Below, one piece after another: positions 3,610 to 24,000 of a stretch of DNA of 24,000 bases. The stretch is from Buttiauxella sp. (GTDB lineage Bacteria; Pseudomonadota; Gammaproteobacteria; Enterobacterales; Enterobacteriaceae). Position 1 is the stretch's first letter; each line of letters begins with the position of its first letter. The notes below the pieces were generated by a model, which saw only the letters and a program-made list of their open reading frames with translations, was not told where the DNA came from and searched no databases. The position numbers and the translations under genes are program-made. Location of the stretch: positions 3,264 to 27,263 of the forward strand of contig NZ_DATERI010000143.1 in NCBI RefSeq assembly GCF_035271705.1, written 5' to 3'.

Positions 3610-3861
3610 ATGGGTATTCTGGCCTGGATTGTTTTCGGTTTAATAGCGGGTGTTATTGCAAAACTTCTGATGCCGGGAAGGGACGGCGGAGGTTTTATTC
3701 TGACCTGCATTTTAGGGATCATCGGTGCCGTTGTCGGTGGCTGGATAGCAACATTTCTTCATATTGGTGGCAATGTCACGGGCTTTAACTTACCGAGTTT
3801 CCTGGTTGCCGTTGCGGGCGCGATTATTGTGCTAATTATTTACCGCATGGTTCGACGATAA
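3610..3861 (+). CDS. ymgE: Small inner-membrane transglycosylase-associated protein (GlsB/YeaQ/YmgE family)
   Basis: The 83-aa ORF MGILAWIVFGLIAGVIAKLLMPGRDGGGFILTCILGIIGAVVGGW... is nearly colinear with remembered E. coli YmgE. An AAGAGGA RBS lies upstream. Confidence 0.9.
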   Translation: MGILAWIVFGLIAGVIAKLLMPGRDGGGFILTCILGIIGAVVGGWIATFLHIGGNVTGFNLPSFLVAVAGAIIVLIIYRMVRR

Positions 3862-3890
3862 TTCTGTTACCTGTCTGGCAGTAGAATTCT

Positions 3891-3922
3891 CAGGCCCTGG
3901 ATTTTTCCAGGGCCTTTTCTTT
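3891..3922 (+). terminator. Rho-independent terminator of ymgE
   Basis: A perfect 9-bp stem AGGCCCTGG (3892-3900) / CCAGGGCCT (3907-3915) with a 6-nt loop is followed by TTTTCTTT. Confidence 0.7.
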
Positions 3923-4065
3923 GCTATTGATTTATCTAATGAATGGTTTTTTTGTGCCATAACGGGGGACGACTGGGAAGTCGGCTCTTATTCTGTGAAT
4001 AAGCGAAGCGTAAAAGTAGGCTGGTTATCTTATTGTTTTTCGTAAATATACTCAGGGAGATCGAA

Positions 4066-5613
4066 ATGAAAAGAAAACTGCTGGCAGGCCTGATAGCCGC
4101 CGCTGTTGCGCTTAGCTGTCCTGTATTCGCACAAAAAGTAGCGGTGACATATAGCAACGGAACAGTCATTGGGTCGAAAGAGGCTGGCGTTGAGTCTTAT
4201 AAGGGGATTCCCTACAGTCAACCGCCGGTTGGCGCGTTACGATGGCAGCCCCCGCAACCCGTGAAAAGTTGGTCGGGTGAACGGCAGGCTGTCAATTATG
4301 GGAATGACTGTTTGCAGGATCCTTTCCCCGGTGATGCCGCCCCGGTTGGCGTCGCAGGGCTAAGCGAGGACTGCCTGACGATTAACGTATGGCGCCCGCT
4401 GCATGCAGAAGGAAAATCACTGCCAGTTATGGTATGGATTTACGGTGGTGGCTTCGTTAACGGAGGTTCTTCGCCTACGGTCTACAGCGGTGAAGAATTT
4501 GCCAAAGAGGGGGTGGTCTTTGTCAGCTTTAACTACCGCATTGGGCGGTTTGGTTTCTTTGCTCACCCGGCATTAGCACAGGAGCCGTTACGCGGTAATT
4601 ATGGCCTGATGGACCAGATTGCTGCCTTGCAATGGGTGCAAAAAAACATTGCTACTTTTGGCGGTAACGCGAAAAAAGTCACCTTGTTCGGTGAGTCTGC
4701 AGGTGGATTCTCTGTTGTCAGCTTATTAACGACTCCGCAGGCAAGCGGGTTATTCCAGCAGGCGATCATCGAGTCAGGCTCCGGGCGGCACAACATTACC
4801 CCGAATCTGACCTACAAAGAGGCGGAGCAGGCTGGTTTGGCCTTTGCACATTTTCAGGGAATTAAAGGTGAAGGGGCCGAAGCGTTACAACACCTGCGTG
4901 ACTTACCCGCATCAACCCTGATGAAGGGCCTGAATATGGCCACGATGCAGGCTGATAAAGGCTATTCCGGGCCGATGATTGACGGACGTTTGATCACGGG
5001 CGAACCGCAGGAGCGGTTTAGCGCAGGTGAGTTTGCAAAAGTACCGCTTATCGTTGGGGTAACGGATTCAGATATCGGTTTTGCTCCCCGTGTTAACGAT
5101 CTACAACAGGCGTTGAAACCGTTGGGGAATATCGATCCCGCTCTGGCGCGTAACGCGTATGACCCTCAGGGGAAAATGTCCCCCCAGCAGTTGGCTGATG
5201 CTATTGCCAGCGACCAGTTTATGGTGGAACCGGCACGATTCCTGGCGCAGGAAATCAGCCGTTACAATGTGCCAGTGTGGCAATACCGCTTCGGTTATGT
5301 GGCCGAGTCTATGCGGCAGCCCGATCAGGGCGCGGCTCATGCCACTGAAATTCCCTATGTGTTCAATACACTCAAAGGCCGTTACGGCAAAGCAGTGACA
5401 GCGCAGGACAACGCTGTCGCCCAGCAAATGCATCAATATTGGGTTAATTTTGCTAAATCGGCGAACCCGAACGGTGAGGGATTACCCGTCTGGCAACCTT
5501 ATCAAAAGCAAAAGGATAATCTGTTGATGTTCCCGAAAGGGGGGGCCAAAGATACCGCTGAGATCCCGGACCCATGGGCCAGGAGATTGGATCTGATTTC
5601 AAATATTCAGTAA
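4066..5613 (+). CDS. Secreted carboxylesterase, type B (alpha/beta hydrolase, PnbA-like)
   Basis: The start was moved to ATG 4066, which has a GGGAGA RBS 5 nt upstream. This gives a Sec signal peptide MKRKLLAGLIAAAVALSCPVFA|QK. Family hallmarks are present: YKGIPYSQPPVG.LRW, EDCLTINVWRP, WIYGGGF (oxyanion hole) and FGESAGG (nucleophile elbow GxSxG). Confidence 0.85.
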   Translation: MKRKLLAGLIAAAVALSCPVFAQKVAVTYSNGTVIGSKEAGVESYKGIPYSQPPVGALRWQPPQPVKSWSGERQAVNYGNDCLQDPFPGDAAPVGVAGLSEDCLTINVWRPLHAEGKSLPVMVWIYGGGFVNGGSSPTVYSGEEFAKEGVVFVSFNYRIGRFGFFAHPALAQEPLRGNYGLMDQIAALQWVQKNIATFGGNAKKVTLFGESAGGFSVVSLLTTPQASGLFQQAIIESGSGRHNITPNLTYKEAEQAGLAFAHFQGIKGEGAEALQHLRDLPASTLMKGLNMATMQADKGYSGPMIDGRLITGEPQERFSAGEFAKVPLIVGVTDSDIGFAPRVNDLQQALKPLGNIDPALARNAYDPQGKMSPQQLADAIASDQFMVEPARFLAQEISRYNVPVWQYRFGYVAESMRQPDQGAAHATEIPYVFNTLKGRYGKAVTAQDNAVAQQMHQYWVNFAKSANPNGEGLPVWQPYQKQKDNLLMFPKGGAKDTAEIPDPWARRLDLISNIQ

Positions 5614-5630
5614 CACAGCCGCCTGAATAA

Positions 5631-5652
5631 GGTCCCGGAAATTACCGGGACC
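5631..5652. terminator. Hairpin between the convergent esterase and ygjK genes (possible bidirectional terminator)
   Basis: A perfect 8-bp GC-rich stem GGTCCCGG (5631-5638) / CCGGGACC (5645-5652) has the loop AAATTA. The flanking U-runs are weak. Confidence 0.5.
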
Positions 5653-5670
5653 CCGGATTGCTGTTAAGTT

Positions 5671-9156
<3,486 letters not shown>

Positions 9157-9161
9157 TTATA

Positions 9162-9202
9162 TTAGTTAATATTTTACTAAAAAATACACTAAAATTAGTA
9201 AA
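9162..9202. promoter_or_regulatory. Cluster of TTAGTAAA-type half-sites in the ygjJ/ebgR divergent region (candidate EbgR operators)
   Basis: TTAGTtAA-TAT-TTTACTAA forms a 19-bp near-palindrome at 9162-9180. A perfect TTAGTAAA lies at 9195-9202 and is preceded by ACTAAAA. The same 8-mer recurs upstream of ebgA. Confidence 0.35.
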
Positions 9203-9209
9203 GCGATAA

Positions 9210-10301
<1,092 letters not shown>

Positions 10302-10316
10302 CCAATTGTTTTATCA

Positions 10317-10351
10317 GGTGGATTAGCGATGCGACATCCACCGTCTTTTTT
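10317..10351 (+). terminator. Rho-independent terminator after ebgR
   Basis: The stem GGTGGAT (10317-10323) / ATCCACC (10336-10342) has a 12-nt loop and is followed by GTCTTTTTT. Confidence 0.65.
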
Positions 10352-10367
10352 ACCCCCTGTTATTTTA

Positions 10368-13985
<3,618 letters not shown>

Positions 13986-14003
13986 GCTGTTAATCACTGA
14001 CTA

Positions 14004-14036
14004 GTGTCGGGTGGCGCTGACGCTTATCCGAGCTAC
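14004..14036. repeat. REP-like (repetitive extragenic palindrome) element between ebgC and ygjI
   Basis: GTGTCGGGTGGCGCTGACGCTTATCCGAGCTAC resembles the E. coli REP consensus GCCGGATGCGGCGTGAACGCCTTATCCGGCCTAC, including the imperfect palindrome TCGG..GCG/CGC..CCGA. Confidence 0.5.
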
Positions 14037-14051
14037 AAAAAGCACTTATAA

Positions 14052-15572
<1,521 letters not shown>

Positions 15573-15586
15573 AAGCTCAAATAAAT

Positions 15587-15612
15587 GGCGGATGGCGCGT
15601 GCGCCACCCGCC
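15587..15612. terminator. GC-rich hairpin between convergent ygjI and the TonB-dependent receptor gene
   Basis: GGCGGATGGCGC-GT-GCGCCACCCGCC forms a 12-bp stem with one mismatch in a 54-nt convergent gap. It is likely a bidirectional terminator or a REP-like element. Confidence 0.5.
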
Positions 15613-15626
15613 ACCCACCTCAAAGA

Positions 15627-17804
15627 TTAAAAATCATATCCCACAGTCGCAATCACAGAACGCTCGGCACCCCAGTAGCAGTAACCCGTTCCATAACAAC
15701 CCGCAACATAATCACGCCCCGTCAGGTTAGTGGCGTTCACTTGCACGAAAGTCCCTTTCAGCGAAGGTGTCCACGCACCCATATCCGCACGCACCATCGC
15801 GTCAATCAGCGTCACAGAAGGTACGCGTAGGGTGTTTTCATTATCCGCCCATTGCTTGCCGATATAACGGATACCCGAACCCAGGCTAATACCGAAGTCG
15901 GCCTTGAACATCCCCCACAGGCTGGCCATCTGGTCAGGTGTGACGTATGGCGTGTTGCCATCGTTACCGTCGATAGCATCTTTAAAGCGTACTTTATTGT
16001 ACGTGTACCCAGCGATGGTTGAAAAACGTGAGTTCCACTGTGAACGCGCTTCCAGCTCAACCCCCTGAGAATGGACTTTACCGGCTGGCTCATAGTAACT
16101 GCCTTGCACCACGCGGTTACCGACATCATTCTGCGTCAGGTCATAAATGGCGAGGGTATACATATCTGTCGTACCGACCGGCTGGTATTTCATACCGGCT
16201 TCATACTGTTCCGCGGTGGTGGGTTTCAGCAGTTTGCCTTCAGCATCAGGCAGAACTTGCGGCGTTATGGCCTGGCTGTAGCTGATGTATGGGGAAATCC
16301 CGTTGGTGAATGCGTACAACAGGGATGCACGGCCGCTGAAGTGATCATCAGTACGGTTATCGGTAACGATGCTATCAATGGTTTCGGCCACGATATGGCT
16401 CTTGGTCACGATGTTGTCGTAACGGCCAGACAGCGTCATATGCCATTGATCCCATTGCATATCATCTTGCAGATAGACACCCGTTTGTTCGTATTGACGT
16501 GTACCGGCTTTGGTCAGCAGCCCTTGATTGATAGTGGAGTAAGTCGGGTCGCGCGGATCGTAATAATAGAAGCCGCCAGGACCCCCAGATTCACCTGTCC
16601 ACGGGTTCAGGTTGGTGGTGTAAGCGGAGTCATCGGACAAATTGTTGGTGAATTTGTGGAATTCGCCGCCGAGCACCACTTTGTTTTCCAGTTCGCCAAT
16701 CGCAAAATCAGCTTCAAGTTGGTTATCCATGGCGTAAGCGTCAAGCGATGACGTTTCACCGCTGTAATAACGCATCAATTCGTCATGCGCCACATCTGCC
16801 CAACCAATCTGGTAAGCCTGTTTCAGGCTAACGTTCGAATGGGTATAACTGGCATTCGAGCGGAAGGCCCAAACGTCGTTAAAACTGTGTGCAAACTCGT
16901 AGCTGTAAATCTGCTCATGGCGTTTGAATGCGTCATTGCCCGGTTCTACATCAGAAAAACCGGTGCTGATTTTGCGCCCAGTAGACGAATAGAGACTGCC
17001 ATCAGCCGGGACAGAACCGTGGAATCCGCCTGAGGGATCTTTTTCCAGATAAGCGCGCAGCACCAGCGAGGTATTCTCGCCAGGCTGCCACAGAAGGGAC
17101 GGGGAAATCGCATAACGTTCGTCACGCGTTTTCTCGTACTGAGTGTCACTATTCTTGGTTAAACCAATAATGCGATAGGCCCACTCGTCGTTAATCGCAT
17201 TGGTGTAATCAAATGCGGTGCCGGTGGTGTTGTCAGTACCGTACATCGCACGAACGTGGCCTTCTTCAACAAACTGTGGGCGCTTGGATGTTTCCATCAC
17301 CAGGCCGCCAGGAATGGTCTGGCCGTAAAGTGCCGAAGAGGGCCCTTTAATCACGTCAATTCGCTCGAGGAACCACGGGTCAACCTGAATCACGTTGTAG
17401 CTGCCGCCGTCGCTCATCAGACGCAGGCCGTCAAGGAAGGTGTTGTTGACATCGCCGCCGTGGAAGCCGCGCAGAGCCACGGTGTCATAACGCGTTGCAC
17501 CGCCCGCAAAGCCGGTAAATACACCCGGTGTGTAATTCAACGCACTGTTTACGGTTAATGCACCCTGGTCTTCGATTTGTTGACGGGGAATCACTGAAAT
17601 GGATTGGCCTGTGGTGATCAACGGCTCATCGGTTTTGGTCGCTCCACGGCTGACCGTAGCGCTATAGCCTTCGGTTGGGCTGGTGGAAGTCTGTGCCGGT
17701 GTAGCCGTAACGACGACGGTATCTTCTGCCAGCGAGTAAGTGGGTGCCGCGAGGGCAAACGCGCAGAGTAAAGCAGAACGCTTCACTGTAAATGCCAGTT
17801 TCAT
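15627..17804 (-). CDS. TonB-dependent outer-membrane siderophore receptor (FhuA/FcuA hydroxamate class)
   Basis: The 725-aa ORF has a signal peptide (…PTYSLA|ED) and a TonB box DTVVVTA. Plug-domain motifs are similar to FhuA (GATKTDEPL...GQSISVI, ALNYTPGV, RGF, ERIDVIKGPSSALYG, PGG). A long beta-barrel ends in ...TVGYDF with a terminal Phe. Confidence 0.88.
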   Translation of the reverse strand: MKLAFTVKRSALLCAFALAAPTYSLAEDTVVVTATPAQTSTSPTEGYSATVSRGATKTDEPLITTGQSISVIPRQQIEDQGALTVNSALNYTPGVFTGFAGGATRYDTVALRGFHGGDVNNTFLDGLRLMSDGGSYNVIQVDPWFLERIDVIKGPSSALYGQTIPGGLVMETSKRPQFVEEGHVRAMYGTDNTTGTAFDYTNAINDEWAYRIIGLTKNSDTQYEKTRDERYAISPSLLWQPGENTSLVLRAYLEKDPSGGFHGSVPADGSLYSSTGRKISTGFSDVEPGNDAFKRHEQIYSYEFAHSFNDVWAFRSNASYTHSNVSLKQAYQIGWADVAHDELMRYYSGETSSLDAYAMDNQLEADFAIGELENKVVLGGEFHKFTNNLSDDSAYTTNLNPWTGESGGPGGFYYYDPRDPTYSTINQGLLTKAGTRQYEQTGVYLQDDMQWDQWHMTLSGRYDNIVTKSHIVAETIDSIVTDNRTDDHFSGRASLLYAFTNGISPYISYSQAITPQVLPDAEGKLLKPTTAEQYEAGMKYQPVGTTDMYTLAIYDLTQNDVGNRVVQGSYYEPAGKVHSQGVELEARSQWNSRFSTIAGYTYNKVRFKDAIDGNDGNTPYVTPDQMASLWGMFKADFGISLGSGIRYIGKQWADNENTLRVPSVTLIDAMVRADMGAWTPSLKGTFVQVNATNLTGRDYVAGCYGTGYCYWGAERSVIATVGYDF

Positions 17805-17969: not shown

Positions 17970-19685
17970 CTATTGCGCGGAAGTTGCAGGCTGAGTCGTT
18001 TCTTTTACTGTTACCGGCCCTGGTGTGGCAGAAGGTAATTTGTCCGGTGTGGAGTCGCAGGGTTTTTGTTTGCCACACAGCAAATCAAGCATTTTCAATG
18101 TGACGCCGTTGGTCCAGCCGAATCCATCCTGCAACGGGTATTCACCCCCGCCACCGCCTGTACCGGTGGTGGATACGTCATATTTTTCTACCAGTTTTTG
18201 CTCGCGGTTATAGGTCTGCTGCACGTTAGTCAGGAAGCGCCAGCTGACTTCCATCGCCAGATCGTTTTGCCCGTAATTTTGCAAACCTTCGGTTGCCACC
18301 CACTGCAATGGCGCCCAGCCATTGGGGGCGTCCCACTGCTGGCCTGTTTTCAGGTTGGTGGTAGCCAGTCCCCCCGCTTTCAGTAATTGAGAACGGGTGA
18401 TGGTAGCCATTTTATCAGCGCGCTCTTTCGACGCGACATGAACGTAAAGCGGGAACAGCGCGGCAGCGGTCAGTTGCGAACGTGCGGCGTGAGTTTTGAG
18501 ATCGTAATCAGCATAGAAACCCTGTTTATCGTTCCACAGATATTTTTCCATGGCTTTTTGGCGGGCGTCTGCGGATTGCTGATATTGCGTGGCAGCCACG
18601 CTGTCTTTTGCCACACTGCTTGCATAGGCCAGAGTTTTTTCCATCTGGAATAGCAGGGCGTTCAAATCAACCGGCACGATAGACGTGGTTCGAATCGAAC
18701 CCAATTGCTCAGGGTTATCCATCCAGCGCGAACTAAAATCCCAACCTGAGGCTGCTGCTGCGCGTAAATCGCGATAAATTTCAGTCGCCGGACGATTGGG
18801 ATTGTTCTTTGCCGTAGTCACGTCATCCAGATACGATTCGGTGCGAGGCGTGTCGCGATCATCCCAGTAACGATTTAGCACCGAGCCATCTTTGAGTTTC
18901 ACCACCCGCAAAGTTTCAGCACCCGGTTCCAGCGCATCGCTGCCCTGCATCCAGTAGGCGTACTCTTGTTTCAACTGCGGTAGATAGGTGGTGTAGGTTT
19001 CGTCACCGTTGTGGCTGGCGAGCAGTTTGACCATAAAAGCAAAGAACGGGGGTTGGGAGCGGCTCAGATAATAACTGCGGTTGCCGTTAGGAATATGCCC
19101 GAAGGCGTCGATTTCATGGGCAAAGTTATCGACCATGTCCTGCACTTTGTCCCAGTGGCCGCTTTGTGCAAGCCCAAGCATGGTGAAGTAACTGTCCCAA
19201 TAATAGACTTCCCTGAAGCGCCCACCCGGCACCACATACGGTTTCGGCAACGGCAACAGCGAATCCCATTTATCTACGCTGTCAGTCGTGCGAGTCAGTA
19301 CTGGCCATAAGCTGTCGATGTGTTCGCGTAAAGTCTGTCCTTCAGGTGGGACATACTTTTCACCTTCTTTTGGTAAGACAAAGTTAACGTCGACAAAATG
19401 GCGCAAATCGAAACCAGATTGATTGCGCTGCATGCGGTAATCCGCAAGGATCATCAAGGGATCATTCTTAGGAACTGCATCAGCAAACGTCTTCTGATCG
19501 GAGAATAATTTTGCCGTTTGTACATCGGTAAACAGTGGACCAAGGAGTACATCAGGCGGTTGGGGCAGCGGTTGTAAACCCTCAGCGGCGGAAGAAGGCA
19601 AAGTGAAAGTGACGAATACACAACCGATAGCTATTTGAATCGCAAACAATAACGTGCGAGGACGGCGTAACACAGGGTTTATCAT
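17970..19685 (-). CDS. treA: Periplasmic trehalase TreA (GH37)
   Basis: The 571-aa ORF has a signal peptide and near-complete colinearity with remembered E. coli TreA. Shared segments include [101 protein letters not shown] and [29 protein letters not shown]. Confidence 0.95.
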
Positions 19686-19830
19686 TAATCGTTCTCCTTT
19701 ACAGACTACAGCGGCGAAAGTTATCCGCGATCAACCCAATGAAAACCTTAGCCGAATATCCGGCCAGTGGTAGGGGAGATGTCTCATAATCAGATAAAGG
19801 AGATAATTTACCCTCTTGCTAACCGCCTGC

Positions 19831-21213
19831 TTAGCCTTGTGGATTGACCAACCATGTACCCGCTTTTTCAATTGATAACGTTACGCTTCGTGACTGATTA
19901 TTATCCCGCAAGGTAATCTCATATTTGCCCACCGGCAGTTGCAACAAGCCGTAACCATTGGTTCCTGGCGAGATTTTTTCGGTCTTGCCGTTAACGTCCA
20001 ATTGTTCGCCGTCGTTCATGCGCACATAAAGGCGTGCCATCGTCCCTTCAGCCACAGGCAGTGCACTTTTAGCCTCAGTAACGTCCCCTTTTTCCACGGC
20101 CGACTTTTCAGCTTTGGTCGTCTGGGGTGAAGAAACGGAAGGAGAATGATGACTGAAAATGAAACCGCCAATCGCCACCCCGATCAGCAAACTGGCAGCA
20201 ATCTGGAGAGGAAATTTGTAACGCTTCCTGAAAGGTGAAAGGGGGGTGATTTCCGCATCTTCCACGGCTATCAGCATCGTGCCGGGCTGTTTCGGTGTCA
20301 GGCCATTGATACCGCTTAGCGGTATTTCGGCTAGTGTGACAAAATCGGCGATAGATTGCGGGCGATCCTCAGGTTTTAACGCCAATGCGCTATCCACCGC
20401 CTGCAACAGGCTATGGGAATAACCTTCCGGTCGATTTTTCGCAAGCTTCACGCAAGGGTCTTGAATGGTGCGGGTGACACTGGCTGGTGGATAGGTGCCA
20501 GTAATCAGCGTGTAGAGAATCGCACCAAGAGCGTAGATATCCGTCCACGGCCCAAGTTGGTTTTCGAGGTCTTCAGCGTATTGCTCAAGTGGAGCAAATC
20601 CCGGATTCAGAGGCGTTTTAACTTCATCGCCATTTTCTGATTGAGTAAAGCGTAGCACGCCAGAATTAAGCAGCAATGGCACACCGTTATCCTGAATCTG
20701 AATACTTTTTAACGACAAGTCTCGATGAATAAAACCTTCATCGTGTAATGTCGCCAGCGCCCCACATAACATGGGTAGCATGCTACGAATCCAGGTTTCA
20801 TTAATCATTTCGGGTTGATGCTGATGCAATTCAGCTAGCGTCACGCCGCTTGAAAAGCGCGTCGCCGCGTAGGCGGTTTCGTTTTGTGTCCAGAAGCTTA
20901 AAACTTGCAGCAAATTCGGATGGTTGAATTGCGCAAGTTGGCGGGAGGACTGCACAAAACGCTTCATACCTACATTAAACGCCTGGCTGTCCTGTTTGCT
21001 GCGTAACACCAGTTGCATGTTATCGCTACGCACCGTCAGGGCCCGCGGCATAAATTCGCGGATAGTGACTGGGCGTTCTAGCTGGTGGTCCCACGCTTTA
21101 TAAACCACGGTAGTGTTATTAGATTCAGTGACTTGAAGAATTTCAAATTCGTCGAAACGGAAACCAGGCGGCAGAGCGTCAGGAATATCTGTTTTGTAAT
21201 CTTTATCAGTCAT
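19831..21213 (-). CDS. Single-pass membrane Hanks-type Ser/Thr kinase-like protein with degenerate catalytic motifs (predicted pseudokinase) and a periplasmic PEGA-like C-terminal domain
   Basis: Residues about 20-295 show a kinase fold: LPPGFRFDEFEI..., FNHPNLLQV, IHRDL, FAPLEQY, GPWTDIYALGAILYTLITGTYPP and PEDRPQS. Catalytic positions are substituted: the G-loop has no Gly, the VAIK Lys is Arg52, the alphaC Glu is Ser, HRDLSLKS replaces the catalytic loop, and NSG replaces DFG. A TM helix PLQIAASLLIGVAIGGFIFS spans aa 335-354 (20152-20211). The C-terminal ~70 aa are beta-rich (ARLYVRMNDGEQLDVNGK...LPVGKYEITLRD...), resembling PEGA domains. Confidence 0.78.
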   Translation of the reverse strand: MTDKDYKTDIPDALPPGFRFDEFEILQVTESNNTTVVYKAWDHQLERPVTIREFMPRALTVRSDNMQLVLRSKQDSQAFNVGMKRFVQSSRQLAQFNHPNLLQVLSFWTQNETAYAATRFSSGVTLAELHQHQPEMINETWIRSMLPMLCGALATLHDEGFIHRDLSLKSIQIQDNGVPLLLNSGVLRFTQSENGDEVKTPLNPGFAPLEQYAEDLENQLGPWTDIYALGAILYTLITGTYPPASVTRTIQDPCVKLAKNRPEGYSHSLLQAVDSALALKPEDRPQSIADFVTLAEIPLSGINGLTPKQPGTMLIAVEDAEITPLSPFRKRYKFPLQIAASLLIGVAIGGFIFSHHSPSVSSPQTTKAEKSAVEKGDVTEAKSALPVAEGTMARLYVRMNDGEQLDVNGKTEKISPGTNGYGLLQLPVGKYEITLRDNNQSRSVTLSIEKAGTWLVNPQG

Positions 21214-21252
21214 GGTGGTCTTACTCTGCTCGAAATCGACGAAACTTCAGGA

Positions 21253-22206
21253 TTATTTCTGGGTGCGCCATACGCCAACCGCTGGATCACGCAATTGCGG
21301 ACGCAGGGAATCAATTAACAACAGCGTGATAGGCGTATCTGGCGCAAGCCACGCTGACCAGACTTCTCGCACGGAATTTAAACGTTTCTGAATAGCGCCT
21401 TCATCCACCGCCATCTCGCGTGATATTTCCACAGCAATAGTGCCCGTTGCTCGCCAGCCATTCAGCTCTGCTTGATAAGGTAAAATCATCCAGCTCAGTG
21501 GGGCATGTTCATTACTGACCACCATACGCTGGTTATTAAGACTGGTGATGAGCAGGCTGTCAGAATTGGCGTCGGCGCTTAATCCGCTGACCGGAAAACC
21601 ATGCACAAAAGTCATCATATGGCGCGTTTCGCCATTCACACCGCTCTGAATGATTTCACTGTGACCGTTCAACCAGCCACCTTTTTCACATTTGCCGTTG
21701 GGGATAAACATGGCTGATGAATTGGCATCACCTTGCCAGAAGGTACGCAGATGGCAGCCATCTTGCAGCGTAAATTCTTGCCACGGTGTGCGGTCAGCTA
21801 ATGGTGAGTTTTCTACGCGAGTGGATTGGGTGTTAGGTTCAATGGAAACGATAGGCGCGATAATCACTTGCCAGTCGCTGCTTTTGCTCGCGGTACCCAC
21901 TGCAAGCGCTTGACCTTGTGGATCTTCCATTCGCCAACTGACTAATTGCACTGCGCTACACTGGTTTTCCAGCAACGCTCCCAGACGGGGCATAAAAACG
22001 TTGAGTAGCGACGGGTTTTTATCACCATTGGCGACGATGCGCAGAGTGAGTTCTTGCGCACACCAGCTTTGCGGCGTGTTGTTTTGCACATCGTCAATCC
22101 AGACATCCAGCTTTTGCGAAGGAGACTGGACGATACGATAGTTACCAGTCGCCCACACCGTGGTAGACGCCAACAATAGCGCCAGACCCGAAAGCCAGAG
22201 TTTCAT
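21253..22206 (-). CDS. Secreted (periplasmic) Trp-rich protein of unknown function
   Basis: The 317-aa ORF has an AAGGA RBS 5 nt upstream and a Sec signal peptide MKLWLSGLALLLASTTVWA|TG. Four Cys lie at 49, 83, 151 and 173. The mature protein has 12 Trp (~4%). I recognise no domain. It lies between the lipoprotein and kinase-like genes with 57-nt and 39-nt gaps. Confidence 0.6.
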   Translation of the reverse strand: MKLWLSGLALLLASTTVWATGNYRIVQSPSQKLDVWIDDVQNNTPQSWCAQELTLRIVANGDKNPSLLNVFMPRLGALLENQCSAVQLVSWRMEDPQGQALAVGTASKSSDWQVIIAPIVSIEPNTQSTRVENSPLADRTPWQEFTLQDGCHLRTFWQGDANSSAMFIPNGKCEKGGWLNGHSEIIQSGVNGETRHMMTFVHGFPVSGLSADANSDSLLITSLNNQRMVVSNEHAPLSWMILPYQAELNGWRATGTIAVEISREMAVDEGAIQKRLNSVREVWSAWLAPDTPITLLLIDSLRPQLRDPAVGVWRTQK

Positions 22207-22263
22207 AAAAATCCTTGTTAGCCTAACAACTTAAGAAAAAATGATGACGTAAAACGTCGACAA

Positions 22264-22758
22264 TTAATCAATGATCCAGGTGCCGCTGTTCGCATTCTGA
22301 CACGCTTTGCTACTGCCATCGACAGCAACACAGGTGGTTTTTTTAGCCGCATGACGTGGACGTGGACGGTCTTTTTTTAGTGTCTGTGCATACAGTTCAC
22401 TTTTCACCACTGCACGCGCCGGGACGTAACCCAACATTTCCTGTTTATCCTGCTCTGCAATGGCCAGCCAATTATTCTCAACTTGCCCCAAAACGGTATA
22501 ACTTTGCCCAGTCTCAAGGGTGTTGATGACTTTCCCACCGAAGTCCGGTTTGCTCATAATTGACCCAGAATACAGCGCCTTAAAACTTGCGTTGACGGGG
22601 GTGAATTCTTTAGGTGCGGTAACCGCGTAACGGTGCGTCAGCGTGACACCATTGATTTCACTGGTCACGATCGTGTCGTCAGTCATTTTTGGCGGTGGCG
22701 TTTTACAGCCTACAACAGTGGCAACAACGGCAAGGATCAATAGATTGCGCAATTTCAT
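22264..22758 (-). CDS. SH3b-like domain lipoprotein
   Basis: The 164-aa ORF has a lipobox ATVVG|C and Lys at +2, with no Asp retention signal. The core FKALYSGSIMSKPDFGGKVINTLETGQSYTVLGQVENNWLAIAEQDKQEMLGYVPARAV has the pattern of bacterial SH3_3 domains. A basic linker KKDRPRPRHAAKK follows, then a C-terminal Cys-X9-Cys. Confidence 0.68.
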   Translation of the reverse strand: MKLRNLLILAVVATVVGCKTPPPKMTDDTIVTSEINGVTLTHRYAVTAPKEFTPVNASFKALYSGSIMSKPDFGGKVINTLETGQSYTVLGQVENNWLAIAEQDKQEMLGYVPARAVVKSELYAQTLKKDRPRPRHAAKKTTCVAVDGSSKACQNANSGTWIID

Positions 22759-22875
22759 CGTAACGTTCCCTGAAAAAATGGTTCAAACCTGGCCGCCGAG
22801 AAAGGGTGAGATGGCGTAGAAATAATCCAGGAATCTTAAGAATGACTAATATATTACCAATACAGACTAACGTTA

Positions 22876-22903
22876 ATTTTACATTGCCTGATTAACAATT
22901 CAA
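22876..22903 (-). promoter_or_regulatory. Candidate sigma-70 promoter of the lipoprotein/periplasmic/kinase-like operon
   Basis: The reverse strand reads TTGAAT-16 nt-TAAAAT about 115 nt upstream of the lipoprotein ATG. It is embedded in an imperfect inverted repeat, TTAACAATTCAATG (22892-22905) / CATTAAGTGTTAA (22926-22938). An alternative TTGGTA-16-TAAGAT lies at 22833-22860. Confidence 0.3.
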
Positions 22904-23046
22904 TGCGGATGTAACTGATTGACATCATTAAGTGTTAATCCTCCGAACAACTGCCTGATAGCAATGATTCAACACGTGAGCCGTCTATCATCCCAGGTTA
23001 CTCCAAGCATACATTATGAAGTAGTTCTTCAATTTCAGGATTAACG

Positions 23047-23175
23047 ATGATGATGGAGCCGTTATTTCCCAATAGCGACGATTTTATCATGTCTGTCGAA
23101 AATCCCTTCGCTGGCTTTCTTTACTGTTTCAGTGAAGGGTTTGCCGTGGGAATGGCTGTGGATGTTATAACATAG
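23047..23175 (+). CDS. Hypothetical 42-aa small ORF (very tentative)
   Basis: ATGATGATG is preceded by AGGA 6 nt upstream. The product is MMMEPLFPNSDDFIMSVENPFAGFLYCFSEGFAVGMAVDVIT. I recognise no homology, and it is below the ORF-track size cutoff. Confidence 0.15.
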   Translation: MMMEPLFPNSDDFIMSVENPFAGFLYCFSEGFAVGMAVDVIT

Positions 23176-23308
23176 CAGCATGCAAGTTCAACCACTGTGG
23201 AGATAAACCCGCGCCCAAAACAGGGAACTCGAATGCGTCTTTACTACTGGCTAATCTGACGCACAACCCTTTTAATGACGCTAACCCTTTTTGCTACCTG
23301 GAAATGTG

Positions 23309-23548
23309 ATGACGGAAATTAAACTTAACCTGAATGAGAAGGACGACATTCGACAGAAACTGGTGGATTACTGCGAGGAGAATTTTGATTTGACACTTGA
23401 GCAGTTCGATGCGGATTTTTTCACCGATTTCGTTATTAAAGAGTTGGGACCGGCGTTATATAACGCGGGTGTCGAAGAAGCTATTAAAACGCATGCTGCT
23501 TATTGTGACCGTATCCAGGAAGAGATGGATTTGAAGAAAATCCTCTAA
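23309..23548 (+). CDS. Small acidic cytoplasmic protein, DUF2164-like
   Basis: The start was moved to ATG 23309 (MTEIKLNLNEKDDIRQKLVDYCEENFDLTLEQFDADFFTDFVIKELGPALYNAGVEEA...). The pattern F..F....LG..(Y/F)YN.G is as I remember for DUF2164 family proteins. The assignment comes from memory, not a search. Confidence 0.6.
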   Translation: MTEIKLNLNEKDDIRQKLVDYCEENFDLTLEQFDADFFTDFVIKELGPALYNAGVEEAIKTHAAYCDRIQEEMDLKKIL

Positions 23549-23570
23549 TTCCGCACTGAATATGAATGCT

Positions 23571-23599
23571 TTGCGGCAGCTAAAATATGACTGCCGCAA
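23571..23599. terminator. Hairpin between the convergent DUF2164-like and phosphoethanolamine transferase genes
   Basis: A perfect 9-bp stem TTGCGGCAG (23571-23579) / CTGCCGCAA (23591-23599) has an 11-nt loop. TTT precedes it and AAAAATTT follows, which would give U-runs on both strands. Confidence 0.5.
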
Positions 23600-23625
23600 A
23601 AATTTAAACCGTTATCAACAGGGGA

Positions 23626-24000
23626 CTAATTCCGGCATCCACGGAACAAATCAAGGTCCGGGTTATACACGCGGGTACTGATGTCCCAAAGCCCTAACAC
23701 CGACGAGAACACGTTGTCGTGGGAGTAGTCGTTTTTAACCGCATTATTTTTCAAACACGCCATATTCATCTGTTTGTCAGCGATAAAACCGGGTGACATC
23801 CACACCTGCATCGGAATATGCGCTTGCTGATCCGGTGCCAGTTTGTACGGTGTGCCGTGCAGATACAGGCCACTTTCACCCAGTGACTCACCATGGTCGG
23901 AAACATACAGCAGTACAGTGTTGTACTGATCGCTGTATTTTTTCAGCTTTTCAATCATTTGTGCCAGCACGTGGTCGGTATAGCGCACAGTATTGTCGTA
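23626..24000 (-). CDS. Phosphoethanolamine transferase, EptA/EptB (sulfatase-fold) family, C-terminal 124 codons; the 5' end lies beyond the window end
   Basis: The translation YDNTVRYTDHVLAQMIEKLKKYSDQYNTVLLYVSDHGESLGESGLYLHGTPYKLAPDQQAHIPMQVWMSPGF...YSHDNVFSSVLGLWDI...LFRGCRN carries the conserved YDNT..YTD and SDHGES.GE.G.YLHG motifs. The C-terminus resembles E. coli EptB more than EptA as I recall them. The reading frame is open to position 24000. Confidence 0.85.
   Translation of the reverse strand, partial: YDNTVRYTDHVLAQMIEKLKKYSDQYNTVLLYVSDHGESLGESGLYLHGTPYKLAPDQQAHIPMQVWMSPGFIADKQMNMACLKNNAVKNDYSHDNVFSSVLGLWDISTRVYNPDLDLFRGCRN

Follow-up and report, generated by a model that had tools for sequence, protein, structure and literature searches.

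The window analyzed here, a 24,000-nt stretch of DNA from Buttiauxella sp., carries on its minus strand three consecutive genes, g1 (22264-22758, 164 aa), g2 (21253-22206, 317 aa) and g3 (19831-21213, 460 aa), hereafter called the triad. As the original prediction had it, the three ORFs are co-directional and arranged like an operon, with gaps of 57 nt between g1 and g2 (22207-22263) and 39 nt between g2 and g3 (21214-21252). A non-coding stretch of 532 bp extends from the 5' end of g1 to the next ORF (23291, plus strand). On the other side lies treA, the gene for periplasmic trehalase (17970..19685, minus strand; NCBIfam TreA, 1091.8 bits), which is a synteny anchor outside the module. The proposed absence of PP2C, FHA and T6SS core genes holds for the whole 24,000-nt window, and the view of the triad as accessory content relative to E. 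coli agrees with the lack of any match to its DNA across 5,426 complete E. coli genomes.

A promoter scan assigned to the triad a conserved promoter resembling sigma70 sites, CATTGAATTGTTAATCAGGCAATGTAAAAT (22876..22905, minus strand), with the -35 element TTGAAT (22903-22898), an invariant 16-nt spacer and the -10 element TAAAAT (22881-22876). It occurs once in the window, and the end point 22903 chosen in the original prediction coincides with the first base of TTGAAT-16-TAAAAT. Two terminator-like structures were detected further downstream on the same strand. In the g1-g2 spacer, a putative hairpin followed by a T-run (22246..22258; terminator-like scan and RNA fold) is a weak candidate for an attenuator; at the other loci of this kind (type A, see below) the spacer measures 24 to 205 nt and hairpins are frequent in RNA folds. 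Between g3 and treA, the terminator-like scan found a weak hairpin (19749..19766), and the 145-nt spacer folds strongly (-37.6 kcal/mol); transcription might nevertheless run from g3 through into treA.

The first protein, g1, is a TagV homologue by profile search and a predicted outer-membrane lipoprotein. It matches NCBIfam NF041850 (TagV) over its full length (E 2.3e-52, 177 bits), level with the 173.6 bits of a T6SS-embedded TagV, and is 59-67% identical to the tagV products opening full T6SS clusters in Kosakonia and Cronobacter. The lipobox TVVG precedes C18, and the residue at +2 is Lys. An SH3b-like core had been proposed and is borne out by the AF2 model (pLDDT 84), whose fold matches SH3/SH3b domains including 4krt and 6biq, but the match to Pfam SH3_3 stays under the gathering score (E 4e-5). 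TagV of S. marcescens (Reglinski et al. 2023, PMC7614798) has a similar length (166 aa) and likewise combines a lipobox lacking Asp at +2 with an SH3b-like core and a C-terminal disulfide pair, represented in g1 by Cys143 and Cys153. In contrast to its S. marcescens relative, g1 lies outside a T6SS cluster and not beside tssJ, in one predicted operon with rtkS' and ppkA'.

The second protein, g2, is by homology an RtkS and predicted to be periplasmic. It has an N-terminal Sec signal, 14 Trp and four Cys (49, 83, 151, 173), all of them invariant among homologues, in keeping with the requirement of S. marcescens RtkS for DsbA (PMC6082577). No Pfam family was matched, and g2 had earlier been left without a nameable fold. 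A relative was found by phmmer at E 7.4e-31 in the "Type VI secretion system-associated protein" of PDB entries 9k0l/9k1p/9k1u, and by Foldseek with the AF2 model against crystallized RtkS (E 2e-15, 30-32% identity); both searches assign the C-terminal domain (aa 133-313; 21268..21810, minus strand) to the crystallized part of RtkS. Furthermore, g2 is 53% identical to the product of an E. cloacae gene sited between pppA and tagJ/tssE of a T6SS cluster, the position also occupied by rtkS of S. marcescens, for which homologues in E. cloacae have been stated (Ostrowski et al. 2018, PMC6082577).

The third protein, g3, aligns along its entire length with the PpkA of the E. cloacae T6SS (52% identity) and is, on this homology, a PpkA-derived membrane pseudokinase. 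Its cytoplasmic Hanks-fold domain (aa 12-296; 20326..21180, minus strand) corresponds to PDB 5hnv, "PpkA N terminal" (E 2.6e-93), and g3 matches Pfam Pkinase with E 1e-15. The sole predicted TM helix (aa 334-356; 20146..20214, minus strand) is flanked by KRYK on the cytoplasmic side, and nowhere else in g3 do Kyte-Doolittle 19-aa windows exceed 1.6. Within the periplasmic tail of 104 aa, a beta domain (aa 392-458; 19840..20040, minus strand) shares homology with the periplasmic PpkA domain that binds RtkS; PDB 9k1u_D, the chain of PpkA in its complex with RtkS, is matched at E 3.7e-13 by the whole protein and at E 1.8e-14 by the tail alone. A PEGA-like domain had been assigned to this tail and was not recovered, since the PEGA profile gave no match to the triad proteins at E<=1. 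The proposed topology of outer-membrane lipoprotein, periplasmic protein and single-TM Hanks-fold protein stands (lipobox with Lys at +2, Sec signal, TM helix).

Judged by these matches, g1, g2 and g3 are stand-alone descendants of the Serratia/Enterobacter-type T6SS accessory genes tagV, rtkS and ppkA, which encode an SH3b lipoprotein of the outer membrane, an activator of PpkA located in the periplasm, and PpkA itself as a transmembrane Hanks kinase. The intuition of an input branch of T6SS threonine phosphorylation was sound, whereas the restriction of this parallel to topology has to be given up, all three proteins being homologues of known T6SS components.

A novel envelope-sensing module with a merely topological likeness to T6SS, or in a variant an anti-phage kinase system, would suit the missing Pfam family of g2, the weak SH3_3 match of g1, the lack of T6SS genes in the window and the matches of g3 to the PADLOC kinase models mad6 and PD-T4-6. 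Direct homology to TagV, RtkS and PpkA, solved structures included, refutes this explanation and leaves it with practically no probability. The anti-phage variant was rejected as the PADLOC matches of g3 are generic for the Hanks fold, the best of them reaching E 1e-28 where PpkA gives 1e-93, and neither g1 nor g2 is matched by a PADLOC model.

The suspicion of a pseudokinase was well founded, as the catalytic motifs of g3 are degenerate. The G-loop reads E30-S-N-N-x-T35, and the beta3 Lys, alphaC Glu, catalytic Asn and DFG are replaced by R52, S89, S170 and N183-S-G, respectively; g3 preserves H163-R-D165, the APE Glu and the fold as a whole. In the orphan kinases at large, neither beta3 Lys nor catalytic Asn survives in any (0/49), the DFG Asp is kept in 7/49, the G-loop glycines are gone from every one, and half of the type A clade has HCR or HRN instead of HRD. 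By comparison, 17 catalytic positions are invariant in 27/27 PpkAs embedded in T6SS clusters, and the mean identity of kinase domains between genera amounts to 90% for embedded and 65% for orphan copies.

Active kinases without canonical residues exist in other families. An active atypical kinase in which Arg52 or a different residue substitutes for the beta3 Lys, acting on a substrate encoded elsewhere as an orphan threonine-phosphorylation sensor, would agree with the retained HRD, APE Glu and fold of the window protein and with purifying selection on its kinase domain (dN/dS 0.046). We regard this as quite improbable: five elements were lost together (G-loop glycines, beta3 Lys, catalytic Asn, DFG Asp and, in Buttiauxella, alphaC Glu), identity between genera dropped as described, and the replacements vary within the clade (DFG to NSG, NAG, NFA, EFG, DVA or NTG; beta3 as R, N or H), which argues against a compensating alternative active site. 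Since the HRD Asp is kept in Buttiauxella, some non-canonical activity of g3 is conceivable there.

The survey of species genomes considered the best 80 of 158 loci, along with the best 120 protein clusters. At 49 of these best 80 loci, g1-g2-g3 stand as an orphan module without a T6SS core gene within 10 kb (type A), and at 27 of them the genes are embedded as fha-pppA-rtkS-tagJ-tssEFG-clpV-ppkA. The type A triads span at least six genera, and their RtkS' proteins are monophyletic in the tree. Neither Fha, PppA and T6SS core genes nor relics of core genes were found at type A loci. A different kind of orphan module, tagV'-fha'-rtkS'-ppkA' (type C), was detected in Franconibacter helveticus, F. 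pulveris and Enterobacter sp. BIGb0383 (L055, L057, L058, L063). Like type A, it is located away from any T6SS cluster and shows an identical order of T6SS accessory genes, but it lies at non-treA sites and has retained both Fha, with FHA and T6SS_FHA_C domains, and intact kinase catalytic motifs, which type A has lost; its copies group with canonical ones in trees. The stand-alone triad, its kinase-dead orphans, the purifying selection on them and the clade promoter are new here.

A functionless relic of a lost T6SS, drifting toward pseudogenes, could be supposed from the loss of the catalytic residues and from the absence of core genes, Fha and PppA at the locus. This is close to refuted and, in our opinion, very improbable. 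Each of the three genes is undisrupted and uniform in length throughout type A (52/52 copies), in a clade of at least six genera with saturated dS. The dN/dS ratios, which are approximate owing to this saturation (dS about 1-1.4), are 0.044 for g1, 0.076 for g2 and 0.073 for g3, as compared to 0.039 for treA; the range of 0.04-0.08 resembles treA and the T6SS-embedded copies. RtkS' is even more conserved between genera than canonical RtkS (70% identity in orphan versus 62% in embedded copies). At the sequence level, each gene of the triad is thus evidently under strong purifying selection, which in g3 extends to both the dead kinase domain and the periplasmic domain (0.074). Moreover, the promoter is nearly invariant between type A genera, with diverged flanks in the upstream alignment. 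Its motif ATTGWATTGTNAN9TGTARAAT is found once 5' of g1 in 51/51 type A loci and in 0/39 other loci, and it is unrelated to the regions 5' of embedded tagV genes; the predicted promoter is therefore private to the triad and specific to the type A clade. An alignment of 11 Buttiauxella upstream regions additionally revealed a block just 5' of the -35 element, containing TTAACACTTAATGATGTCAATCAGTTACATC (approximately 22906..22940, minus strand), which is kept in Buttiauxella only and not in other type A genera and may represent an operator.

The genomic address of the triad bears on its origin. In 31/49 type A loci treA directly adjoins the pseudokinase gene, and in 38/49 it is found within 10 kb. 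It also borders full, tagV-first T6SS clusters in Kosakonia, Phytobacter/Metakosakonia and 'Salmonella s1', and the address ldcA-emtA-ycgR-ymgE-treA is common to triads and full clusters of at least three genera. Full clusters begin with tagV, hold rtkS in the middle and end with ppkA (tagV ... fha-pppA-rtkS ... clpV-ppkA), an order that the type A triad repeats as first, middle and last gene. We infer, with somewhat better than even confidence, that an ancestral treA-linked T6SS cluster lost everything else and then underwent an inversion. The orientations are opposite (treA<- ->tagV in full clusters, g1->g2->g3->treA here), which counts against an in-situ origin and makes a simple in-situ deletion insufficient. 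The deletion scenario also lacks support from relics, none having been found at type A loci.

An ancient event in which tagV, rtkS and ppkA were duplicated or relocated as a paralogous module, with treA as a recurrent insertion hotspot, has a considerable chance of being correct, although we place it below even. Besides the inverted orientation and the missing relics, it accommodates the Cronobacter full cluster, which is not at treA, and type C as a second, independent orphan kind at non-treA sites, found in F. pulveris alongside a full cluster (L058+L083). Pseudescherichia vulneris and three related MAGs hold the triad together with a full fha-pppA-rtkS...ppkA cluster (L042+L072, L047+L077, L046+L075, L048+L079), a situation that duplication fits equally well. 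Against it stand the colinearity with the full cluster and the common address; moreover, uniting three dispersed genes takes more events than two deletions and an inversion, and a "parent" copy is not among the matches listed for most triad-bearing genera.

With regard to function, we consider it probable that the triad is a retained kinase-dead T6SS input module that works without phosphotransfer. Among the closest known systems is RtkS-PpkA of S. marcescens (PMC6082577; PDB 9k1u, 9k0l, 9k1p, 5hnv), to which g2 and g3 are homologous over their full length and similar in predicted topology, with a periplasmic protein and an N-in single-TM kinase fold. In contrast to that system, g2 and g3 adjoin each other outside a T6SS cluster, and neither Fha (the substrate), PppA (the phosphatase) nor TagF is encoded near the triad. 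Without the beta3 Lys, catalytic Asn, DFG Asp and G-loop glycines, phosphorylation of Fha, the defining output, is not to be assumed. The trio is placed in a characterized pathway by ancestry and not by present function, because this copy is orphan and kinase-dead. For lack of the catalytic residues, the three proteins probably function together independently of the secretion apparatus. PpkA' would still be bound by RtkS' at its periplasmic beta-domain, in the manner seen in 9k1u, and TagV' may anchor or feed this pair from the outer membrane/peptidoglycan side. The pseudokinase domain could then relay the envelope state to some partner by conformation, oligomerization or scaffolding.

The output might alternatively concern a T6SS encoded elsewhere in the genome, on which the triad would act in trans as decoy, dominant-negative partner or co-sensor; PpkA' could, for example, heterodimerize with active PpkA or titrate Fha and thereby tune T6SS firing. 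The triad of Pseudescherichia could act in this way on its co-resident full T6SS, present in P. vulneris and the three MAGs. A T6SS is reported for Scandinavium (PMC6856666), all three proteins have T6SS accessory ancestry, and type C modules, with T6SS_FHA_C and an active kinase, suggest that such modules can still address T6SS. As a general explanation, however, a trans-acting regulator seems unlikely: the triad is conserved equally with or without a co-resident T6SS, and it has its own promoter, which is unrelated to the sequences preceding embedded tagV genes. No second RtkS or TagV is among the matches listed for Buttiauxella, Dryocola, Cedecea and Siccibacter, and the secretion systems reported for a B. 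gaviniae isolate comprise T1SS, T2SS and T4SS, without a T6SS (PMC12177058). With only orphan TagV and RtkS copies of Buttiauxella among the listed homologues (best 80 of 158 loci, best 120 protein clusters), hence no such T6SS detected there, and no Fha or PppA nearby, the output of the kinase-dead module in this genus is probably T6SS-independent.

The original prediction had drawn its parallel to TagQ/TagR/PpkA of P. aeruginosa; given true homology, RtkS-PpkA and TagV are the proper comparison. The H1-T6SS TagQRST-PpkA system has the logic of outer-membrane lipoprotein, periplasmic activator and TM Hanks kinase in common with the triad. However, its lipoprotein and periplasmic protein show no evidence of homology to g1 and g2, the ABC-like components TagS/TagT are absent here, and Serratia-type and P. 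aeruginosa PpkA differ in their periplasmic domains according to Ostrowski et al. (PMC6082577).

In M. tuberculosis, the pseudokinase domain of MviN/MurJ recruits the FHA protein FhaA. It resembles g3 as a catalytically dead Hanks-fold cytoplasmic domain of a membrane protein that serves as a scaffold in envelope biology, but lineage and architecture are unrelated. Finally, the partners of TagV are still unknown according to a 2026 review (PMC13584744), and a proposal of RtkS or PpkA in this role was not found in the literature consulted; the gene linkage within the triad suggests both as candidates.

The three adjacent minus-strand genes encode orphan homologues of three type VI secretion system (T6SS) proteins, TagV, RtkS and PpkA, the last of them kinase-dead, and we hold both the identities and the loss of kinase function with very high confidence. 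The genes g1 (22264-22758, 164 aa), g2 (21253-22206, 317 aa) and g3 (19831-21213, 460 aa) of the ORF listing are separated by gaps of 57 and 39 nt and preceded by 532 bp of non-coding DNA 5′ of g1, as in the compact arrangement with a private upstream region of the original prediction. They are currently annotated as ‘SH3 domain-containing protein’, ‘hypothetical protein’ and ‘serine/threonine protein kinase’, respectively. The remainder of the window is ordinary Enterobacteriaceae chromosome with ldcA, emtA, ycgR, ymgE, an esterase-like gene, ygjK/ygjJ, ebgRAC, an APC transporter gene, a TonB-dependent receptor gene and treA. As had been noted from the sequence, the window contains no PP2C, FHA or T6SS genes. 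Rfam gave nothing at E ≤ 1 for positions 19500-23700, and a ‘distant’ mode search of E. coli genomes returned no match to the triad DNA.

The g1 product (TagV′) aligns from end to end with the NCBIfam family NF041850 (T6SS accessory protein TagV), at E 2.3e-52 and with 177 bits, below the curated equivalog cutoff of 300 bits. Since a TagV-like gene embedded in a T6SS cluster (L076) reaches only 173.6 bits, this cutoff is Serratia-narrow and without power to separate orphan from embedded proteins; a copy from a four-gene orphan module (type C, described below) scores 168.7 bits. Judged by its sequence, g1 is as TagV-like as true Enterobacteriaceae T6SS TagVs. TagV is an outer-membrane SH3b lipoprotein which the T6SS of S. 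marcescens needs for full activity, and the Serratia protein fractionates with the outer membrane (PMC7614798). The lipobox of g1, MKLRNLLILAVVATVVG followed by C18-K19 (TVVG before C18), carries Lys and not Asp at position +2, which predicts outer-membrane sorting. The SH3b-like character proposed earlier was strengthened by the AF2 model (pLDDT 84), whose SH3 matches, 4krt and 6biq among them, include the peptidoglycan-hydrolase SH3b entries reported for TagV, and stayed sub-threshold with Pfam SH3_3. A C-terminal cysteine pair (C143/C153), as expected for the disulphide pair in the small C-terminal domain of TagV, and W97 are invariant in 34 homologues, and W97 is probably the counterpart of TagV W100. 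Canonical tagV is followed by tssJ-K-L-M; g1 is located outside any T6SS cluster and not beside tssJ.

No Pfam family was found for g2, and its fold could not be named from the sequence in the original prediction. Residues 133-313 match the crystal structures 9k0l, 9k1p and 9k1u in phmmer (E 7.4e-31), and the AF2 model finds the same entries (‘RtkS’, ‘RtkS and PpkA complex’) in Foldseek at E about 1e-15 to 2e-15, which identifies g2 as an RtkS homologue (RtkS′). RtkS, a periplasmic protein with homologues in E. cloacae, binds to the PpkA periplasmic domain and stabilises it (PMC6082577). The signal-like N-terminus of g2, MKLWLSGLALLLASTTVWA, and its four invariant Cys residues suggest a periplasmic protein with Sec signal peptide and disulphide-dependent stability, in keeping with RtkS; g2 also contains 14 Trp residues. 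In Enterobacter cloacae, the gene of the homologue (53% identity) has pppA on one side and tagJ/tssE on the other; fha lies upstream, and a kinase gene follows clpV. This is the position of rtkS (SMDB11_2269) (PMC6082577). Whereas embedded copies lie between pppA and tagJ, g2 sits between tagV′ and ppkA′ and not downstream of fha-pppA. Its product is 100% identical to a protein of a Buttiauxella MAG, which assigns the window to a species of Buttiauxella.

For g3 (PpkA′), Pfam detected Pkinase in the C-lobe only (E 1e-15). The protein is 52% identical to the E. cloacae T6SS PpkA over its whole length and matches the S. marcescens PpkA kinase domain (5hnv) at E 2.6e-93. Its single hydrophobic segment (334-356) has KRYK ahead of it, which places the N-terminal domain in the cytoplasm and the last 104 residues in the periplasm. 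The tail had been described as PEGA-like; Pfam returned no PEGA, and residues 392-458 instead match the PpkA chain 9k1u_D (E 1.8e-14; whole protein E 3.7e-13). g3 thus combines a kinase domain homologous to that of PpkA with one TM helix and a periplasmic domain of the Serratia type, and the predicted lipoprotein/periplasmic/one-TM kinase topology agrees with the lipobox, the signal-like N-terminus and the TM segment, each a sequence prediction. A look-up of the exact g3 sequence found no record.

The earlier reading left open whether g3 is a kinase or a pseudokinase, and the residues point to the latter. Where the PpkAs of E. cloacae and Serratia have GGGGFG, AIK, the αC Glu, HRDISLDN and DFG, g3 has ESNNTT, TIR, Ser, HRDLSLKS and NSG (ESNNxT, R52, S89, HRD..S170 and N183-S-G). 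In sequences derived from genomes, 17 catalytic positions are invariant in all 27 T6SS-embedded PpkAs. Among 49 orphan kinases, none keeps the β3 Lys (R in 44, N in 3, H in 2), the catalytic-loop Asn (S in 48, T in 1) or an intact G-loop, the glycines being replaced except for one Gly at one position in some; the DFG Asp persists in 7/49 and the HRD Asp in 24/49. The loss of catalytic residues was also examined on 120 database homologues. Different genera have different replacements, and this speaks against an alternative active site that would make up for the losses. The label ‘serine/threonine protein kinase’ is, on these residues, probably wrong as to activity. An assignment of g3 to anti-phage kinase systems was considered and rejected: the PADLOC hits (mad6, PD-T4-6, MkoA; best E 1.9e-28) are generic to the Hanks fold and far weaker than the PpkA matches, and g1 and g2 have no PADLOC hit.

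These matches mean that the likeness to a T6SS input branch is one of homology, where the original prediction allowed for shared topology only. The triad is better compared with TagV/RtkS/PpkA than with P. aeruginosa TagQ/TagR/PpkA, the system named there, g1 and g2 being accounted for by TagV and RtkS. The triad is of the same lineage as the TagV, RtkS and PpkA families but lacks their location in a T6SS cluster, an active kinase and the partners Fha and PppA. Neither an orphan tagV-rtkS-ppkA unit nor a PpkA-derived pseudokinase was found described in the literature, where an August 2026 review names no known partner for TagV and confines RtkS to Serratia, Erwinia and Pantoea (PMC13584744).

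Scanning species-representative genomes with an alignment of g2 yielded 158 loci, the best 80 of which were annotated by tblastn. In 49 of these 80, termed type A, g1, g2 and g3 are adjacent and T6SS core genes are absent within 10 kb; the genera include Buttiauxella, Dryocola, Cedecea, Siccibacter, Scandinavium, Pseudescherichia and allies. The genes fha and pppA are likewise absent from the window and within 10 kb of every type A locus. Type B (27 of the 80) comprises embedded copies in the order fha-pppA-rtkS-tagJ-tssE-F-G-clpV-ppkA in Enterobacter, Kosakonia, Phytobacter, Yokenella and others. The remaining four (type C; L055 7975-12423, L057 8023-12419, L058 7998-12425 and L063 124-3858) carry an orphan tagV′-fha′-rtkS′-ppkA′ module in Franconibacter and Enterobacter sp. 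BIGb0383, with an fha′ product of about 415 aa (FHA and T6SS_FHA_C); the kinase motifs are intact, and T6SS core genes are missing from the vicinity. The type C hosts are Enterobacter sp. BIGb0383, Franconibacter helveticus, F. pulveris and a MAG; in F. pulveris, a full cluster (L083) is present as well. In neighbour-joining trees, type A RtkS forms one clade and type C joins type B. Active embedded PpkA, active orphan with Fha (type C) and kinase-dead orphan (type A) constitute a natural, phylogenetically broad series in which to study the change of a bacterial receptor kinase into a pseudokinase. Several record titles are at odds with their content: ‘Chryseobacterium sp. 18061’ (L036) and ‘Citrobacter sp. 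OP27’ (L028) hold Scandinavium-like triads, and ‘Vagococcus sp. WN89Y’ (L073) and ‘Salmonella enterica strain s1’ (L050/L090) hold Kosakonia-like T6SS loci; these assemblies are probably mislabelled or contaminated.

All type A copies are intact (52/52 for each gene). Median dN/dS values within Buttiauxella, approximate because dS is saturated, are 0.044 for g1, 0.076 for g2 and 0.073 for the whole of g3, with 0.046 for its kinase domain and 0.074 for its periplasmic β domain; treA gave 0.039, and rtkS and ppkA of the Kosakonia T6SS gave 0.087 and 0.098. Between genera, kinase domains are 88-93% identical in embedded PpkAs (mean 90%) and only 60-72% in orphans (mean 65%), whereas RtkS shows the reverse trend (orphans 70%, embedded 62%). 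It was thus specifically the kinase domain whose constraint loosened, to stabilise afterwards at a different level that is still strong.

The chromosomal position bears on the origin of the triad. A look-up of canonical TagV proteins showed that tagV opens a full T6SS cluster (tagV-tssJ-K-L-M-tagF-tssA-B-C...). In Kosakonia radicincitans, a second Kosakonia-like genome and Phytobacter/Metakosakonia massiliensis, treA lies about 1 kb from the start of this cluster, in the context ldcA-emtA-ycgR-ymgE-treA. The window has the same backbone, ldcA-emtA-ycgR-ymgE ... treA, and in type A loci treA directly adjoins the pseudokinase gene in 31/49 and lies within 10 kb of it in 38/49. In ‘Salmonella enterica s1’ a toxin gene separates treA from tagV, and in Cronobacter the full cluster is not at treA. 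The order of tagV′, rtkS′ and ppkA′ is that of the opening, a middle and the closing gene of the full cluster, so that the simplest origin is an ancestral cluster at treA which lost tssJ...pppA and tagJ...clpV in situ, and the shared address of triad and full clusters speaks for it. However, relative to treA the triad has the opposite orientation to the full clusters, a tblastn search for relics of T6SS core genes in the window and in every type A locus found nothing above chance level, and Pseudescherichia genomes hold the triad at treA together with a full cluster on another contig. We lean somewhat towards in-situ reduction; an ancient duplication or relocation is a serious, slightly less probable alternative.

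The toxin gene of ‘Salmonella enterica s1’ (L090 3166-9213) encodes a 2015-aa Tox-PLDMTX protein, by its position at the edge of the tagV-first cluster probably a T6SS-associated toxin. The genes ymgE and treA adjoin in Kosakonia and Phytobacter and lie about 14 kb apart in the window (3610-17804), where the interval holds the esterase-like gene (4033-5613), ygjK/ygjJ, ebgR-ebgA-ebgC, the APC-family transporter gene and the gene of a FoxA/FhuA-like TonB-dependent receptor; it looks like a variable region inserted into a common backbone.

A σ70-like promoter of 30 bp is predicted at 22876-22905 (TTGAAT, an invariant 16-nt spacer and TAAAAT). It is kept in all type A genera while the flanks diverge, and its degenerate motif occurs once upstream of g1 in 51/51 type A loci and in 0/39 other loci; embedded and type C tagV genes have upstream sequences different from type A. 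Directly upstream of the -35 hexamer, at approximately 22906-22940 (minus strand), the block TTAACACTTAATGATGTCAATCAGTTACATC is conserved in Buttiauxella and absent in other type A genera; no known box was recognised in it, and it may represent a genus-specific operator. Inspection by eye of the conserved promoter region for CRP, RcsAB, CpxR and OmpR boxes found nothing convincing. The tagV′-rtkS′ spacer (22207-22263 in the window) ranges from 24 to 205 nt across genera (type A loci, e.g. L020, L024, L025 and L041), contains the conserved RBS-proximal sequence ‘GGCTAACAAGGA’ and often forms strong hairpins, down to -73 kcal/mol in Siccibacter. It could set the TagV′:RtkS′ expression ratio or be an inserted REP-like element.

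For the working of the triad, we propose that RtkS′ would bind the retained periplasmic β-domain of PpkA′ as in 9k1u. This putative partner domain is kept in g3 under purifying selection (dN/dS 0.074) and encoded 39 nt downstream. TagV′ at the outer membrane, its SH3b domain probably binding peptidoglycan, would be the third member of the complex, and the cytoplasmic pseudokinase domain would pass on the periplasmic state by conformation, oligomerisation or scaffolding, not by phosphotransfer. The best explanation as a whole, from the identities of the three proteins to this mechanism, we regard as reasonably probable; that the RtkS′-PpkA′ complex has been retained together with TagV′ has about an even chance of being correct.

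The persistence of the triad after machine, Fha and phosphatase are gone would imply a T6SS-independent role. Among the listed homologues (best 80 of 158 loci, top 120 protein clusters), which include canonical copies of many other genera, Buttiauxella has no TagV or RtkS beyond the orphan copies. The listed members of the 90% clusters of TssB (15 of 599) and Hcp (15 of 375) include none from Buttiauxella, but are too few to be informative. As an indirect negative, T1SS, T2SS and T4SS, and no T6SS, are given for a B. gaviniae isolate (PMC12177058); another paper on Buttiauxella contained nothing pertinent. With no linked Fha or PppA and only orphan TagV and RtkS among the listed homologues, a T6SS-independent output of the Buttiauxella triad becomes probable enough that we judge it evenly poised; in Pseudescherichia, a T6SS resides in the same genome and could be modulated by the triad. 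The regulatory ‘input’ end of a T6SS would accordingly be able to long outlast machine, substrate (Fha) and phosphatase, and in annotation the triad should not pass for evidence of a T6SS.

The partners and mechanism of TagV are unknown (PMC7614798; PMC13584744). The selected tight linkage of tagV′, rtkS′ and ppkA′ in at least six genera predicts that TagV acts with RtkS-PpkA and not with TssJ/L/M. Tentatively, the triad may be a self-sufficient trans-envelope complex which outlived its T6SS and signals or tethers the envelope without phosphotransfer, with canonical TagV as the missing outer-membrane member of the RtkS-PpkA sensor. If true, this would explain why no structural partner of TagV in the T6SS has come to light.

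Upstream of the triad, positions 23626-23988 (minus strand) encode the C-terminal end (120 aa) of a phosphoethanolamine-lipid A transferase, the gene continuing past the right window edge. Among the NCBIfam families, MCR-9 matches it best (E 2.9e-71, over positions 420-538 of the 539 in the model) and MCR-10 second. This chromosomal mcr-9/10-like gene lies about 870 bp upstream of g1; B. ferragutiae has zinT in its place. Between this gene and the triad upstream region, an ORF at 23291-23548 (plus strand) encodes an acidic 85-aa product without NCBIfam family.
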